Source: a virus. From it: a stretch of 25,918 nucleotides of DNA. The notes below the pieces were generated by a model, which did no database searches, was not told where the DNA came from, and worked only from the letters and a program-made list of their open reading frames with translations. Positions within the stretch are counted from its first letter, which is position 1. Each line of letters opens with the position of its first letter. The translations under genes and the position numbers were made by a program. Below are positions 2,708-25,918 of the stretch, in pieces. The stretch lies in UHGV virus genome UHGV-0362220, one strand, 5' to 3'.

Positions 2708-2733
2708 ATAAAAAAGGCACCATTTCTGGTGCC
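2708..2733 (-). terminator. tJ-like intrinsic terminator between J and stf
   Basis: Minus-strand RNA: stem GGCACC (2733..2728), loop AGAAAU, stem GGUGCC (2721..2716), then UUUUUUAUUU. Ends 8 nt before the stf start codon. Confidence 0.5.
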
Positions 2734-2752
2734 CGAATTTGGGTTTTAAAAT

Positions 2753-5700
2753 TCAACTGATACTGATGCCGGCTGTTGATTTCTTCATCACGACAACAAG
2801 AAGGTCGCTGATACTGGTCGTTGGCGTCCAGTTATTTGCACCATATGAAGAAACATTGAAAGTCAGGGTGACATGGCCGTGTCCGGCAGGCATATCAATG
2901 ACTGATGAAAATACCCTGCTGACATCCGTCGCGGGTTGCTGAAAGATTTCCTGTCCGTTCTTCAGCACCTGCAGCTTACAGGTTGAATACCAGTATGACT
3001 GTTGGTTGTTGCTGTTGAAGTTTTCATGCTTACCACCGCGAAACAGAACGGGGGGGACGACTATCTGACGGTCAAAAGCCTGGTCATCGTACACAGTGAC
3101 CGTTATTGTACCGCTGGCATAACTGCCATTTCTCGGAAAGGCTTTTCCCACCGTTTTGACAATATCACCTTCAATCTGGTTAGCTGACAGTTTTCCCAGA
3201 ATCCGACAGTTCTGGTTAATCGTGACATTATTGAGCGTCCCGGAGTTCGCATTCACGTTACCGCTGATATCCGCATTTCTCGCAGAAAGTCGACCATCAG
3301 GTGTCAGTGAAAACGTTGGGGGATTGCCACCGCTGGTAATGGTGGGAGCCGTCAGATATTTCAGGAACACTTCGTTCATGAATATCTGATCGCCCTGCCC
3401 AACAAACATCGGCTTTGTATTGCCATTCGCAGGATTAATCATCGCAATCCTGTCCGCCGCCAGCAGCACCTGACTCTGCATACCGTCAGGGGTATTCTCA
3501 ATACCGGCACCAATACCCGCGATATAAAGGCGTCCGTCCTGCATCTGCTGCAGCTTCACAGCCCACATGCTGTTCAGGTTATTATTTGTATCAACCTGAA
3601 CCTTCTGTATCTGCTGGATCGCTGCACTCTGGTCTTCCAGTTTCTTATTGACGGTCTGCGTGATTTCATTGCTGACATCCGTAATGGACGTCCTGATTTC
3701 AGCCAGGTCAGGCGCAAGCTGACCGTTATCAATCTGCGTCCACAACTCCTGAGCCAGATGGGTTTTCCCTATCTCTCCTTTGAAAAAATCCAGATAGCCG
3801 GATGCATCATCACTCGGCTGGCCAACAGCCTCCACAAATGCCGATTTGCCAACGGTGTTCACACTGCGAATGTAAAAATAATAATCATGGCCCGGTTTGA
3901 TATTGATACTGGCGGCTATCCAGTACAGCGCCGTACCAAGATAACGCGCGCTGGCTTCAACCTGCCTGATATCCGCAATCCGCTTTTCCGAGAACCAGAA
4001 CTCAAACTGTACCGTCGGATCATAAACGGCAAGATGCGGCGTTGCGGTTATCTGAAAATAGCCCGGCGTCAGCTCAATCCGCGATGGCGCTGCCGGTGCG
4101 GCAATCCGGAACGATACCGACGCCGGATCCCCCTGCTGCCCCCACGCATTTACCGCCCGGACTGTCAGCCTGTAGTTCCCCAGCGCCAGTTGCCTGAAGC
4201 GGTATGTGGTTTCCGTCGTCCTGGCCGTGCTGACCAGCCGCTCACTGCCGTCATCCGCTGCCACGGTCAGGCGAAGCATAAAGCTCACCCCCTTCACCAC
4301 CTTCGGTGTGTCCCATCGCGCCAGCACCTGATATTCCCCGCTGTCTGCGGTGACTTCTGCGGTCAGGTGCTGCACCGCGGGCGGCGTGACACCATTCACC
4401 GTGCCACTCTGTTCGCCGTCAAAGTGCGCCCCGTTATCCACGATGGTCTCTTTTTCCGGCACATGCTGCACGGCGGTGATGGCATACGTGCCGTCGTCGT
4501 TTTCACGGATACTCACGCAGCGGAACAGTCGCTGGCGCAGCGTCGGCAGCTTCAGCCCCCATACGCTGTATTCAGCAACACCGTCAGGAACACGGCTCAC
4601 TTTCACCTTCACGCCGTCGGTGACGGACTGAACCTCCACGCTGACCGGATTGCCACTTCCGTCAACCAGGCTTATCAGCGTGGTACCGGAGGATGGCAGC
4701 GTGATTTCACGGTCGAGCGTCAGCGTCCGGGTCTGGCTGTTCACCGCCAGCACACGACCACCGGTGCTGATACCGGCATAGTCATCATCGCAGATTTCAA
4801 TGACATCCCCCGGTACATGGCGAAGCCCTTCAGCACCCACGCTGAAGTCCACGGTCTGCGTTTCCAGCAGCTCCGTTTTAATCAGCCACAGCCCGGCGCG
4901 GTGTGCCTGCCCCCGGCTGGTACAGCCAAAGGCATCCATCTTCGTGACGTTACGGCCGTAACGGGCAATGGCCTGCGTATCCTCCACGAGCTCTGTCGCC
5001 GTCTCCCAGCCGTTATCCGGGTCAATCCAGTTCACCTCAACGGCATTATGGCGGTCCTTCAGGGCGCTGAAGCTGTAGCGGAACGGCGCGCCATCATCCG
5101 GCATCACCACATTACTGCGGTTATAGGTCCACACCTTATCTGATGGTCGGTCCTGCACGAACGTCAGCGTCTGCCCGTTCCATACCGGCATACAGCGCAT
5201 CGCCGAGCAGAAATCACTGAGCACATCCCACGCCTTGCGCTGTGTGGTCAGGTACGCATTACAGGTAATGCGCGGCTCCGTGCCGCCAAAGCCGTCCGGC
5301 ACCGACTGGTCGCAGTACTGGCCGATGACATACAGCGCCCATTTATCCACATCCGCCGCACCAAGACGTTTCCCCATGCCGTAGCGCGGATGGGTCAGCA
5401 TATCCCACAGACACCAGGCCATGTTGTTGCTGTATGCCGGTTTTAACGTTCCGTCCCAGATACCGCTGTATTGCCGCGTCTGCGGGTTATAGTTCGACGG
5501 CACCTGCAGAATGCGCCCGCGAAGATGATAATTACGGCTCACCTGCTGGCTGCCGAACTGCTCCGAGTCCACCTGCACGCCAACCAGTGCCGTGTTCGGG
5601 TAGCACTGTTTCACATCGATGATTTCGGTGTATGACGACCAGAGCGTTTTGTTCAGCAGCTGGTCTGTGGTGCTGTCCGGCGTCATCCTGCGCATCCGGA

Positions 5701-22247: not shown

Positions 22248-22448
22248 ATGTCATCGAAAAACCGGACCCGCAGAACCACAACCCGCAATATCCGTTTCCC
22301 CAATCACATAATTGAACAGATCAACATCGCCCTTGAGCATAAAGGGTCCGGTAACTTTTCAGCGTGGGTTATTGAAGCCTGCAGGAGAAGGCTGGCAACA
22401 GATGCAACGCATCTGCGCCCGGCCAGCATGACAAATAACGAGAAATGA
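22248..22448 (+). CDS. YlcI-like (DUF3950-type) small protein, 66 aa
   Basis: ATG at 22248 with AAGGA 7 nt upstream; MSSKNRTRRTTTRNIRFPN...GSGNFSAWVIEACRRRL resembles the prophage YlcI family as recalled. On the opposite strand to the late operon. Confidence 0.65.
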   Translation: MSSKNRTRRTTTRNIRFPNHIIEQINIALEHKGSGNFSAWVIEACRRRLATDATHLRPASMTNNEK

Positions 22449-22646: not shown

Positions 22647-22862
22647 TCAACACACTGGCTGTAATACCATGCGGCATTTAGCGGCATTCATCGTACACTC
22701 CACGGTTAGCTCTTCATTCGTGGCATTCACCTGAAAGGTCCGGGAGTGTAATTGCGTACATTTACCACTGAACGAACCTTCAACAAGAACACGACCACGC
22801 TGCAAAATACGGAACGGAATTGTTCCCTGAAAAGGTTCTACGGTTACCCGTAATTTCTTCAT
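22647..22862 (-). CDS. hypothetical protein (71 aa), translationally coupled to Rz
   Basis: ATG overlaps the Rz stop (ATGA at 22859..22862) with GGAGGA 4 nt upstream. [13 protein letters not shown]...; no family recognised. Confidence 0.5.
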
Positions 22863-23353
22863 GTATCCTCCGGATAATAAAAAGCCAGCTTAGTGCACTG
22901 AGTGCGGATATATTCCTGCGCCCCTTCCAGCTGCTTCTGCATTGTCATCAACCGTTCTCTGAGGATGAAATAATCCCGTTCAGCGGTGTCTGCCAGTCGG
23001 GGGCCGGTTGCATTATCCACGCTGGAGGTGCCGGTGGCTTCACGCACGGTACCGGGGCAGGTGGCGTTGACCCGCAGGCGCTTACGACCAGCGGCAACAT
23101 CAGCGCGCAGAGTTTCATTTTCAGCTCTCGCATCGGCTAATTCCTTCGTGTATCTGGCATCAAGCGCAGCGACATCTCGCTGGCGCTGCTGCATGTCAGT
23201 AATAGTGGCATTCGCCAGTTTCAGCTCACTGACTTTTTTATCGCGCTGCGCTTTGTAGGTGATGGCGTTATCGCGGTAATGATTCAGCCCCAGACTAAGC
23301 ACACCACAGGCTACCAGCATGACAATAATCACCACACACAGAACACGGTTCAT
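22859..23353 (-). CDS. Rz: i-spanin Rz
   Basis: From ATG 23353 ([17 protein letters not shown]...[16 protein letters not shown]...[23 protein letters not shown]) matches lambda Rz as recalled. The listed 192-aa ORF is a GTG-initiated upstream extension. Confidence 0.9.
22948..23133 (-). CDS. Rz1: o-spanin Rz1 (lipoprotein), embedded in Rz in the +1 frame
   Basis: [25 protein letters not shown]...[27 protein letters not shown] matches lambda Rz1; lipobox VSAC; proline-rich mature part. Confidence 0.85.
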
Positions 23354-23354
23354 A

Positions 23355-23441
23355 TCACCACCAACGGATTGCCCAGACCAGAACAGCAATGGCCACAATA
23401 CGAATGGCAAATGCCATTGCCCGAATAAGTTCAGCACTCAT
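23355..23441 (-). CDS. candidate 28-aa hydrophobic peptide immediately upstream of Rz
   Basis: ATG 23441 to TGA 23357..23355 ([28 protein letters not shown]); the stop overlaps the Rz start region (UGAUAUG). Weak SD (AAAAAG). Absent from the ORF track because it is under 60 aa. Confidence 0.3.
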
Positions 23442-23705
23442 CTTTTTAAAGTTCACGATTTCAGCGCAATGACCAGTTTTGCCAGCCCATACAGCATCGG
23501 AGACACAGCAATACCAACAGCCACCCACTTAATAGCAAAAGCCAGCGCTCTGCTGATGTCATCAGTCACTGTCACCCCAGCAGCCCCGACGAAGACAACA
23601 TCACCCAGGCGAGGGACAGAAAAAGAGCAACCAGCATTAGTGAAAATGAAATACCGACAATCACACACAGGACCTTTGCCGGCGTTATGAGTTTGTCTGA
23701 CATAG

Positions 23706-23801
23706 CTACCCCTTAATTGCCACAATTAACTGGGATACTACCCATAAAAAAGGGATGCTCCAGACCAGCAAAAATTTCCAGTTTGGTAATTGACTAATCA
23801 T
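23706..23801 (-). CDS. candidate 31-aa single-transmembrane peptide between endolysin and Rz
   Basis: ATG at 23801 with AGGGAG 9 nt upstream (MISQLPNWKFLLVWSIPFLWVVSQLIVAIKG). Nested as an in-frame internal start in the listed 70-aa ORF, whose GTG start lies inside the terminator hairpin. Confidence 0.35.
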   Translation of the reverse strand: MISQLPNWKFLLVWSIPFLWVVSQLIVAIKG

Positions 23802-23865
23802 GAGTCGCAACTCCCTAATCAGTTTGCTAAAATCAATCAAGGCAGCCTCCCATAGCTTACTGCCA

Positions 23866-23910
23866 TAAAAACAAAACCCCGCTTGCTGCCAACAAACGGG
23901 GTTTTTACTT
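23866..23910. terminator. bidirectional intrinsic terminator inside the lysis cassette, between endolysin and Rz
   Basis: 9-bp stem AAAACCCCG (23873..23881) / CGGGGTTTT (23897..23905), 15-nt loop; U-rich tracts follow on both strands (plus UUUUUACUUUU; minus UUUUGUUUUUAU). Confidence 0.6.
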
Positions 23911-23995
23911 TTATTCACTTAGGTTTTGCCAGTTCACAGGACTTCGTGTTATCCGCCCGCGTTGGCCAACCTCATTTTTCAGCAAAATATTCTGC

Positions 23996-24529
23996 TTATC
24001 TGTCGATTCCCCAGCACGCCAGCGCGCTCTCCTGGTCACGACGGAATACCTGACCGTAACAGTTATTTGAGCGAATACGGCAGTCTCTGCCACCGTCCTT
24101 AATCCACCAGCGAATCGCTTCGCATGCTCCCCTGCGATCACCTGCATTAATTCGTCTGTAAAACGTCGACGGGAAACACTTACCGGGACCAATGTTGTAC
24201 GGACAGAATGACGCGATCCCCGCTTTCTGGGGTTCGGTCAATGGCACTTTGATGTTTTTCTCCACCCATGCCAGCGCCTTATCACGCTCAATGGCGTTAA
24301 CCCGGTCGCATTTTTCCTTCGACAACTTCATGCCCGGAACGACAGGTTTGCCATCCACCAGGATGGCACCGCGGCAGATGGTCCAGATACCCGCGCCATC
24401 ACGGTATGCCGTGGTGTGGTTACCTTCCTTTTCATCCAGAAACTGGTCGAGAATGTCAGGCGCAGGCGCACCAGCGGCAATCAGCGCCAGAACGGCAGCC
24501 GACAGGCCGTATCTGATTTTTGCGTTCAT
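23996..24529 (-). CDS. endolysin, T4-lysozyme (GH24) type with N-terminal signal-anchor-release (SAR) segment
   Basis: Catalytic triad spacing E-9-D-6-T in LDEKEGNHTTAYRDGAGIWT; Gly/Ala-rich weakly hydrophobic N-terminus (GLSAAVLALIAAGAPA); eight cysteines in the catalytic domain. Confidence 0.9.
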   Translation of the reverse strand: MNAKIRYGLSAAVLALIAAGAPAPDILDQFLDEKEGNHTTAYRDGAGIWTICRGAILVDGKPVVPGMKLSKEKCDRVNAIERDKALAWVEKNIKVPLTEPQKAGIASFCPYNIGPGKCFPSTFYRRINAGDRRGACEAIRWWIKDGGRDCRIRSNNCYGQVFRRDQESALACWGIDR

Positions 24530-24634: not shown

Positions 24635-24907
24635 ATGGACAATAACACCATTTCTCTACAGGAGTTGCTCGACAGCATTTCCAGGCTTCGGGAAGACGTG
24701 AATACCCTTACCGTCGCCTTCTCATATCTGGCATTCTCAATTCCAAGGGAACAGATGCAATCAACGCTGGCATCAATCCAGTTTGAATCATGCAATCCCA
24801 AATGGTCTCAGGAACAACAAGACTCTTTCAGGCGGCTTGCTGTATTACTGGATGAAAAATATGCTGGTAAAATTACCATTTCGGCGGACTCTTCAGAGAA
24901 CCCGTAA
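24635..24907 (+). CDS. hypothetical protein (90 aa) encoded antisense within the lysis cassette
   Basis: ATG 24635 with GAGGA 7-9 nt upstream; protein-like helical sequence; rare codons (AGG, CGG, CTA) and locally lower GC suggest foreign origin; 3' end overlaps the YdfR-like ORF by 35 nt. Confidence 0.45.
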   Translation: MDNNTISLQELLDSISRLREDVNTLTVAFSYLAFSIPREQMQSTLASIQFESCNPKWSQEQQDSFRRLAVLLDEKYAGKITISADSSENP

Positions 24908-25221: not shown

Positions 25222-25437
25222 TTACTCTCCCCGTGCCGCCTTACGACGGTCCTCTCTGATTTTGAAATACAGGTTAGTCAGATATGTCAGCAGCCCAAAC
25301 AGCAGACTCCCCAGCACGCCTATTGCCGCCCACTGAGACGGGGAAACCCTGTCCAGCAACTGCAGGAACCAGTAGCCCGTTCCCACCGCTGACGTGGTGT
25401 ATGACACACCTGTTGTGATTTTTTCCATCTGGTACAT
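25222..25437 (-). CDS. class II holin / pinholin of phage 21 S type, with dual-start motif
   Basis: [71 protein letters not shown]; C-terminal two-thirds match phage 21 S as recalled. Starts at M1 (25437) and M4 (25428); SD GGGAGA upstream. The listed 97-aa ORF contains the terminator and is not used. Confidence 0.85.
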
Positions 25438-25472
25438 ACCCCGTCTCCCGTTATCCGGAAGCTGACAACAAT

Positions 25473-25503
25473 AAAAAAAGCCACCAGTTAAGTACTGATG
25501 GCT
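25473..25503 (-). terminator. tR'-like intrinsic terminator immediately upstream of the holin gene
   Basis: Minus-strand RNA: stem GCCAUCAG, loop UACUUAA, stem CUGGUGGC (8 bp, one G-U), then UUUUUUUAU; about 35 nt upstream of the holin start. Confidence 0.6.
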
Positions 25504-25587
25504 CTGATAACTCATGCAGGCATCTCAGACGACCCACTGACACTACCGGTGAGTTTAACGATACCTTCCATTTGACTGGCTCACTTT

Positions 25588-25918
25588 TTATGATGATGCC
25601 GGTGCATTTATCTCCAGCACCAGACTTTCTATCTCAACGCCATACGTTGCATTTTTGGTAATATCCGTCAGCGTCAGCGCATTCAGCCCCAGTGTCAGAC
25701 TGTCTTTTATGACCTGTGACGTCGTGGCGATGACCGGGACTGGTAACCCGTTCCTGATGTCGTTCTTCACCCAGACCACAGACGGCAAACTGAATCTGAT
25801 GCATCACAAGAAAGCAGCAGCCACTCCATTCAGTTTCGGAGTAACCGTGGCACTGCCGGCGGTGAACACCAGCTCCAGCGTCTGCCAGTCGTTACTGTAA
25901 TTCCCGAACTCGCCCAAC
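25588..25918 (-). pseudogene. reading frame running in from the right edge, interrupted by an in-frame TGA (25806..25804), then continuing as the 66-aa ORF
   Basis: Same frame on both sides of one stop: ...TPKLNGVAAAFL* then CIRFSLPSVVWVKNDIRNGLPV... Could be one disrupted gene or two unrelated frames. No similarity to Q antiterminators recognised. Confidence 0.2.

Follow-up and report, generated by a model that had tools for sequence, protein, structure and literature searches.

The window analysed here is the whole 25,918-nucleotide stretch of the virus genome UHGV-0362220, and the subject of this report is the insert that separates its endolysin gene R from its spanin gene Rz on the minus strand (23354 to 23995). 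The insert holds the 3' untranslated region (3' UTR) of R, a bidirectional intrinsic terminator, T1, and a tight chain of four open reading frames (ORFs), A to D, each encoding a micro-peptide with a single predicted transmembrane (TM) segment. The explanation that we hold at about even confidence is that the insert is not spacer but a mosaic accessory module of the late operon, in which an antisense RNA holds the T1-ORF A unit in check and the peptides aid or time lysis. In sense order the module would read R 3' UTR, T1, four translationally coupled genes for inner-membrane micro-peptides and then straight into Rz, and from an outward promoter in the 5' coding region of ORF A an RNA of about 75 nt would be made that spans the ribosome-binding site of this ORF and terminates at T1. 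In the lysogen, T1 would end stray sense transcription and the antisense RNA would block or destroy any ORF A message that leaked through. Upon induction, Q-modified RNA polymerase would pass T1, the sense message would exceed the antisense RNA and A to D would be made alongside holin, endolysin and spanin. The peptides would then insert into the inner membrane with the N-terminus in the cytoplasm, where they may help or time lysis.

The insert and its four micro-peptide genes

Many E. coli chromosomes of the ST131 type, for example that of JJ1887, carry a prophage that the window matches at 100% identity, and when a 751-bp query around the insert was used, at least 80% of it was present in 587 of 5426 complete E. 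coli genomes. The order on the minus strand is class II holin, YdfR-family gene, endolysin R, insert, Rz with Rz1 embedded in it, HNH endonuclease and terminase. The ORF of R (23996..24529, minus strand), which RefSeq calls lysozyme, forms the upstream boundary of the insert and that of the i-spanin gene Rz (22859..23353, minus strand), also in RefSeq, forms the downstream boundary, which leaves a gap of about 640 bp. In the Qin prophage of E. coli K-12 rrrQ and rzpQ overlap and there is no insert, therefore the 640 bp are extra DNA in the window prophage and the splitting of the lysis cassette that was pointed out in the initial annotation is borne out. Qin was also tried as the no-insert comparator for the right-hand boundary and was rejected because its Rz is not homologous.

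Two peptide ORFs had been described in the insert. Both are present but the count was incomplete, ORFs B and C having been missed, and the four ORFs follow one another on the minus strand with gaps of 2 nt between A and B, 2 nt between B and C, 11 nt between C and D, and 1 nt between D and Rz. Each of the four has a 19-aa window with a Kyte-Doolittle hydropathy of 1.9-2.9, from which a TM segment is predicted, and in A and B the N-terminal flank carries a net positive charge.

ORF A had been reported as a 31-aa ORF (23706..23801, minus strand) that starts at an ATG with AGGGAG 9 nt upstream. This short form exists, and it lies in frame within a long form of 44 aa (23706..23840, minus strand) that starts at the TTG at 23840 and matches PHROG 6632. 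The leader of the long form (23841..23862, minus strand) carries the Shine-Dalgarno (SD) sequence GGGAGG, the complement of 23846..23851, 5 nt before the TTG. The long form has a conserved N-terminus, IDFSKLIRELR.M..LP.WK, predicted to be cytoplasmic and followed by one predicted TM helix. The 13 extra codons of the long form are conserved in other genera, homologues of 44-45 aa being found in Salmonella, Citrobacter, Enterobacter, Klebsiella and Providencia. Of 23 distinct in-register variants 18 begin with the weak start codon GTG and 3 with TTG, and the internal Met codon and the GGAG before it are both conserved. The G+C content of ORF A is 38.5%.

ORF B (43 aa, one TM segment; 23572..23703, minus strand; ATG start, SD AAGGGG; WP_001280935.1) matches PHROG 4906 with E = 4.5e-21. 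It is full length and intact in 276 phage records, down to 63% identity, and its carriers, in which it is mostly unannotated, are for the most part Shiga toxin (Stx) phages and include BP-4795, Min27, phi191 and many phages of the Stx1 and Stx2 types. Ten alleles of ORF B showed no indels at all, and the ratio of nonsynonymous to synonymous substitution rates (dN/dS) was about 0.24-0.5 in the more diverged pairs, in which dS reached 0.74. All 93 of its 93 relatives in a large protein database are from E. coli. ORF C (38 aa; 23453..23569, minus strand; GTG start), of which RefSeq has a 51-aa version (WP_042004856.1), is the conserved core of a family of 48-60 aa, and the copy in the window is without a leader and N-terminus of its own. 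The core, ..VTD(D/E)I..AVAFAIKWVAVGIAVSP.LYGLAKLIIALKS, is common to E. coli and Salmonella and has a dN/dS of 0.04-0.13 against the homologues from these two hosts, at saturated dS. An exhaustive search with a hidden Markov model of the C family gave just 18 representative clusters, all of them short, and linked it to no larger family. B and C are the best-conserved ORFs of the insert and both are under purifying selection. ORF D (28 aa; 23355..23441, minus strand; ATG start, weak SD; WP_032140280.1) matches PHROG 4493 and PHROG 3246, the same families as C, and its ..IRWW end together with the junction to Rz resembles the end of ORF A of the H-19B type. Its stop codon had been said to overlap the Rz start; the ORF is as described, and the stop, TGA at 23357..23355, ends one base before the Rz ATG at 23353.

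B, C and D are annotated as hypothetical proteins in RefSeq, and the PHROG families that A to D match are all of unknown function. Searches of A to D gave no match in Pfam (none at E <= 1), NCBIfam or PADLOC, nor with the Pfam holin families, and no paper was found in the literature that names these ORFs or their accessions. Rfam gave no match either, and the earlier statement that the 31-aa peptide matches no known family holds as far as toxin and antitoxin families are concerned. Two possible origins were considered and dropped. Recent duplication of DNA as the source of C and D is not significant at the DNA level, the two being related only through PHROG profiles, and the similarity of ORF B to the N-terminal TM segment of Rz, of which it might have been a duplicate, is likewise not significant as DNA (codon-shuffle p of about 0.1). 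Two observations on relatives of ORF C may be added here. In the phage phiSTEC1589-Stx1c (L005, 1522..1793) C is frameshifted and A and B are intact, the small ORFs all being unannotated in that record, and in a Salmonella prophage (L017) a mini-ORF of 7 codons lies between the SD and the C-family start.

The 3' UTR of R and the terminator T1

Downstream of the R stop codon the cassette alignment gives a conserved non-coding stretch (23919..23995, minus strand). About 85 nt 3' of the R stop are kept: the stretch aligns throughout the 11 cassettes of the comparison as well as in 38 distinct variants, and the identity of this 3' UTR, 83-98%, is at least as high as that of the synonymous sites of R. 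A related stretch, GGCGGATAACAC(A/G)AAATCC, is found in Salmonella. The 3' UTR could be a stability element, the source of a 3'-UTR-derived small RNA (sRNA) or a recombination linker. It contains a hairpin, GGCGGAU..AUCC(U)GCC, that is also seen in Salmonella, and in the Salmonella prophage L017 a 32-aa hydrophobic ORF, MAAMICFVAAFMLACDGRSGWGWFLLVGLIVM (2712..2810), overlaps the end of the lysozyme gene upstream of this conserved hairpin and of T1.

In every cassette compared a terminator follows the R 3' UTR, and it is either T1 or the non-homologous T2, GGCACCGTAATGGTGCC with a T-rich tail, which is found in the cassettes that carry an antirepressor gene (ant). A bidirectional terminator had been called at this place in the initial annotation, and consensus scan, folds and covariation all agree with that call. 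T1 occupies 23863..23918 and has the structure of a terminator on both strands, with its stem at 23873..23905 and a G+C-rich hairpin followed by a U tract in either direction, the U tract being the complement of 23862..23876 on the minus strand and 23902..23915 on the plus strand. On the minus strand the hairpin folds with 15 pairs at -25.4 kcal/mol (z -4.2) and on the plus strand at -17.4 kcal/mol (z -2.7). The stems of T1-type hairpins differ in sequence and yet covary across genera: from 22 diverse leaders RNAalifold gave a stem of 12 pairs, 6 of them with compensatory double changes. In 66 leaders the hairpin is stable on both strands, the means being -23.2 and -20.3 kcal/mol, and of 39 distinct leader variants 38 have an A-tract/GC-stem/U-tract hairpin immediately before ORF A. 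The A tract, by which the hairpin would also terminate on the antisense strand, is retained in every context.

In lambda, Q-modified RNA polymerase passes terminators of this kind. From this biology, and from the terminase and structural genes that lie downstream of the insert on the same strand as the lysis genes, we infer that Q-modified polymerase would also read through T1. That Rz and Rz1 need read-through, as had been stated, is right in form, and what was said of Rz and Rz1 applies to the whole late operon, terminase included. Consensus scan and leader comparison revealed no sense promoter between T1 and ORF A, where there are only about 22 nt, and the sequences 5' of T1 are unrelated between contexts. 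Since a sense promoter is absent, the peptides must come from read-through late transcripts and the locus is not a self-contained toxin-antitoxin system. A second hairpin in the ORF A leader that would sequester the SD looked plausible by eye and was dropped, because 35% of shuffled sequences reach the observed stem score.

Promoter-shaped bases within ORF A and a predicted antisense RNA

It had been proposed that a plus-strand promoter made of TTGACT (23790..23795) and CCTAAT (23814..23819) drives a short antisense RNA that ends at the terminator. These hexamers are present in the window, but they fail the consensus scan, which gave one promoter site on the plus strand of the region against 2.0 expected by chance, and they are not conserved, as homologues have TTGCTT or TTTTTC in place of the -35 and CCGTAT or CCGAAT in place of the -10. 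An antisense RNA that ends at T1 is nevertheless favoured by the comparative data, from a different start. A promoter-like element lies antisense to codons 3-12 of ORF A (23805..23833, plus strand) and consists of TCGCAA (23805..23810), a spacer of 17 nt, TG (23825..23826) and TAAAAT (23828..23833). Its extended -10, TGCTAAAAT (23825-23833, plus strand), is 35 nt past the TTGACT at 23790 and antisense to codons 3-5. The motif TG-n-TAAAAT is seen 3 times in the window, where chance alone would give 0.84.

What draws attention to this element is the nucleotide conservation of the codons that it overlaps. In the 23 distinct diverged homologues, which come from several enterobacterial genera, Asp3 is always GAT, Phe4 TTT, Ser5 AGC, Lys6 AAA, Leu7 CTG, Glu10 GAG and Arg12 CGA, a rare codon, and the sole exception is one CTA at Leu7. 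Equally conserved residues, namely Ile8, Leu18, Lys22, Phe23 and Leu25, vary synonymously, and the difference between the frozen and the synonymously varying codons is significant (Fisher p = 0.015). The variable codons fall within the spacer of the promoter-like element. From the geometry of this putative promoter and the plus-strand side of T1 a cis-antisense RNA of about 75 nt is predicted (23840..23915, plus strand), which would begin opposite the ORF A start codon, overlie the SD and finish at T1. Its predicted fold has an energy of -21.9 kcal/mol and presents the anti-SD sequence CCUCCC in a hairpin loop.

The C family, which is unrelated to ORF A, has in E. coli and Salmonella a leader like that of ORF A. 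At the same relative position it carries TAGTCA, a spacer of 18 nt and TATACT, and it has 48 nt that are 100% identical between E. coli and Salmonella beside a coding sequence in which dS is near 1.

No Rfam family came near its gathering score in these searches, the best antitoxin match being ohsC with 19.9 bits against the 50 required and on the wrong strand; hits to the rimP leader were also sub-threshold, were on the antisense strand only and were treated as noise. The list of EcOnc sRNAs obtained in the Sakai strain by Hfq cross-linking and analysis of cDNA (CRAC) has no entry at R-Rz junctions, and as the Sakai junctions that were checked, those of Sp6, Sp12 and Sp15, are of the ant-B type, this list cannot test the antisense prediction. 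One member of the list, EcOnc10, is HnrS, an Hfq-bound sRNA of Sakai (PMC13502914). It maps to the 3' end of a plus-strand ynfO-like gene downstream of Rz in Sakai Sp12 (L016, 2240..2288) and was considered as a related sRNA, but the mapped sequence is absent from the window in spite of the YlcI/YnfO-family gene at the corresponding position (22248..22448).

Mosaic junctions and the spread of the T1-ORF A unit

The R-Rz junction was found with at least ten different contents, the empty junction of Qin included. With T1 and ORF A the junction may read R-T1-A-Rz, as in H-19B, R-T1-A-B-Rz or R-T1-A-B-C-D-Rz, the last being that of the window and of 72 of the IMG/VR loci read. ORF C may follow T1 directly, as in R-T1-C-B-Rz, R-T1-C-Rz, R-T1-C-D-Rz and R-T1-C-B-C-D-Rz. 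With T2 the contents are R-T2-ant-B-Rz, which is seen in Stx phages and in Sakai Sp6, Sp12 and Sp15, R-T2-ant-A'-B-Rz and R-T2-ant-A'-B-C-D-Rz, and in the latter two ORF A', fused behind ant, begins near the start of the short form and lacks the terminator, the promoter region and the 13 N-terminal codons of the long form.

The T1-ORF A unit is not tied to one kind of lysis cassette. In Enterobacter it stands between a GH19 endolysin and an overlapped spanin pair, and elsewhere it adjoins an M15-peptidase endolysin or, in place of an endolysin, a protein of 161 aa for which no Pfam hit is recorded. The spanin genes upstream of which it is found encode i-spanins of the PF03245 kind, of the DUF2514 kind and of a third kind. 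It is also found within baseplate and tail operons, in Salmonella phage SEN34, in Rac-SA53, in Klebsiella (L228) and in Citrobacter (L107), and there it is directly upstream of the gene for the sheath initiator or for the central tail fibre. These sequence contexts indicate that T1-ORF A is a mobile cassette.

Weighing of the explanations

Several of these observations weigh against an antisense-guarded module with a role in lysis. The -35 of the putative antisense promoter agrees with the consensus at 3 of 6 positions and the consensus promoter scan does not call the site. The frozen bases could come from a constraint on translation initiation, from the SD of the internal ATG or from a recombination linker: GGGAG at codons 9-10 doubles as the SD of the internal ATG of the 31-aa ORF, so that part of the freezing may be translational, and one locus (L343) is a hybrid joined within the conserved stretch, so that recombination may help to keep it conserved. 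The stretch from T1 to ORF A lacks a sense promoter, and the hairpin at the SD is no better than the shuffled controls. Where the unit lies within baseplate operons, it is difficult to see how the genes downstream of so strong a terminator would be expressed. Since ant also occupies the endolysin-spanin junction, location alone is no proof of a role in lysis, and since the ant phages hold ORF A' without the terminator and promoter region, the peptide can exist without the proposed antisense guard.

These points lead to the alternative that survives best, which we consider a minority possibility that has to be taken seriously, namely that A to D are plain late accessory membrane peptides, whether they modulate lysis or do something else, and that there is no antisense RNA. 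The terminator would then mark the end of the holin-endolysin (S-R) message or guard against leakage, and the frozen bases would be due to the demands of translation initiation, to the internal SD or to a recombination linker. The tight coupling of the ORFs and their purifying selection are as expected from this, and so are the weak -35, the lack of a call in the promoter scan, the hybrid junction of L343 and the occurrence of ORF A' outside the T1-ORF A unit. The non-homologous T2 at the same place in the ant-type cassettes also fits, as it means that a terminator after R is conserved regardless of what follows it. What such plain late peptides leave unexplained is why Arg12 is always CGA and Ser5 always AGC, 30 nt into the ORF, when the codons of the spacer vary, why the C family has promoter-like hexamers at the same place together with 48 invariant nucleotides, and why the A tract of the antisense terminator is retained in every context.

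That the peptides are factors of superinfection exclusion or of competition between phages, which would block DNA entry at the inner membrane and be encoded at a permissive insertion site, is in our view unlikely. HK97 gp15 is reportedly such an inner-membrane blocker of DNA entry, and ORF A is found also beside tail-tip and baseplate genes, a frequent home of exclusion genes. The content of the site differs strongly among near-identical cassettes, it can be an antirepressor gene, and the G+C content of ORF A is low, all of which would suit this explanation. However, no promoter for the lysogen was found and a terminator lies upstream, hence the peptides would be made only late in the lytic cycle, when exclusion is of little value. 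PADLOC gave no match, and for each of A, B and C there are repeated cases in which an i-spanin gene follows directly, in A and C within otherwise unrelated lysis cassettes.

The initial annotation had compared the layout to type I toxin-antitoxin loci, and part of the layout is indeed there: a small hydrophobic peptide, a predicted antisense RNA and the terminator geometry, in a prophage, and prophages are known to carry type I systems. A classical addiction module, with a constitutive stable toxin mRNA and an unstable antisense antitoxin, is nonetheless quite improbable. A toxin promoter was not found and only about 22 nt separate the terminator from the start codon, the sequence upstream of T1 changes with context, neither the Pfam toxin families nor the Rfam antitoxin families gave a match, the unit sits in late operons in sense orientation, and versions without the antisense region exist. 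The last alternative, that the ORFs are untranslated recombination scars in plain spacer, is disfavoured and hardly credible, for against the very short length of the ORFs, the frameshifted C of L005 and the weak SD of D stand the intact ORF B of unvarying length in 276 phage records down to 63% identity, the dN/dS of B and C well below 1, and the reading frames that the A, B and C families hold across several arrangements.

Neighbouring genes

Rz1 is an ORF embedded in Rz (22948..23133, minus strand) and is annotated in RefSeq. The endolysin R is of the R21 type, with an N-terminal hydrophobic segment like that of the signal-anchor-release (SAR) endolysins. The class II holin ORF (25222..25515) is annotated in the matching RefSeq genome and is separate from A to D. 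Upstream of it, at 25689..25754 on the plus strand, the Rfam family for the a1/b1 targets of C4 antisense RNA gives a weak match below threshold (20 bits, the gathering score being 46.7; E = 0.08). An ORF of 90 aa on the opposite strand (24635..24907, plus strand) is situated within the lysis cassette, between the genes of the YdfR family and of the endolysin, and extends into the end of the former. Its full length matches PHROG 2411 with E = 1e-58, and the ORF is hypothetical in RefSeq and looks like a reverse-oriented moron. Directly 3' of Rz an ORF of 71 aa (22647..22862, minus strand) matches only positions 100-165 of the 291 positions of PHROG 2571 and is probably a gene fragment.

Significance

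The lysis cassettes of lambdoid phages are textbook four-gene systems, and it is against this background that the endolysin-spanin junction is seen to carry extra micro-genes under selection in a large share of E. coli prophages. The module is common and uncharacterised, and it is present in Stx phages and their relatives. If the peptides tune or assist lysis, this would bear on the release of toxin and phage from enterohaemorrhagic E. coli and on how prophages of ST131-type strains are induced. Should the antisense RNA be real, it would be a new phage-borne riboregulator, and a toxin would be controlled in a new way, by a terminator and an antisense RNA with no toxin promoter.

A wider reading is put forward tentatively, as one that we regard as possible though on the whole doubtful. 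T1-ORF A and T1-ORF C would both belong to a new family of membrane micro-toxin cassettes that are promoter-less, gated by a terminator and guarded by antisense RNA, and that serve as triggers or timers of lysis. Such cassettes would hop from one late operon to another among the temperate phages of enterobacteria, with endolysin-spanin junctions and the clusters of baseplate and tail genes as landing sites, would be kept silent in the lysogen by the RNA of about 75 nt, and would fire solely under antiterminated late transcription. The downstream array of B, C and D would consist of shuffled partner peptides that tune the lysis clock. Were this so, the cassettes would be unrecognised lysis genes, and they would be present in Stx phages too.

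Comparison with known systems

Like the toxins of type I systems, A to D are small (below 60 aa), hydrophobic and predicted to have a TM segment. ORF A has no toxin promoter of its own, and none of the described toxin or antitoxin families (Hok, Ldr, TisB, Ibs, ShoB, Zor, DinQ, Fst and others) is represented. The hokW-sokW system of the Stx2 prophage Sp5 is a type I system of a prophage whose membrane toxin aids lysis and phage release on induction (PMC8621323). With hok/sok the insert has in common a small single-TM peptide and an antisense promoter, here a predicted one, within the 5' end of the reading frame or leader reading frame, from which a short RNA runs over the SD and the start codon. 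It differs from hok/sok in that neither sequence nor profile links the insert with Hok/Gef or Sok, in that ORF A has neither its own toxin promoter nor a long folded toxin mRNA, and in that ORF A is located within a late operon behind a terminator.

The sar RNA of P22 is reported to be a small antisense RNA of about 70 nt directed against the ribosome-binding site of ant, with an outward promoter in the 5' end of the gene and an intrinsic terminator. The outward promoter, the RNA against its own ribosome-binding site and the end at an intrinsic terminator are all predicted from sequence for ORF A as well. Unlike in sar/ant, the target in the case of ORF A would be a membrane micro-peptide and not a regulator, there is no sequence relation between the two, and T1 would also block the sense direction.

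The concept of morons in lambdoid phages, such as bor, lom and HK97 gp15, is attributed to Hendrix and colleagues. The insert resembles them as a set of extra genes that may be present or absent at a fixed junction, with an atypical G+C content in ORF A and a terminator at the flank. It differs in that no promoter of its own that would be active in the repressed prophage was found and in that its genes are in late-operon orientation and translationally coupled, and for this reason expression from the repressed prophage is not expected.

Among small lysis regulators, the Mu releasin gp25 is a small membrane-anchored protein that acts on SAR endolysins and has a sizeable cytoplasmic domain, DUF2730 (PMC9239132). 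A to D resemble it, and also the antiholins lambda S107, S21-71 and T4 RI, as small membrane-anchored proteins, predicted as such here, that are encoded in or beside the lysis genes, and the two in-frame starts of ORF A recall the dual-start motif of holins. In contrast to these proteins, A to D have no homology to them, match no Pfam holin family and also accompany cassettes without a SAR endolysin. The closest layouts are those of the hok/sok-like type I systems and of P22 sar/ant, and judged from its sequence the insert is a group of late-operon membrane-peptide genes behind a gating terminator, probably with an antisense RNA as guard, to which a shuffled array of micro-peptide genes is added.

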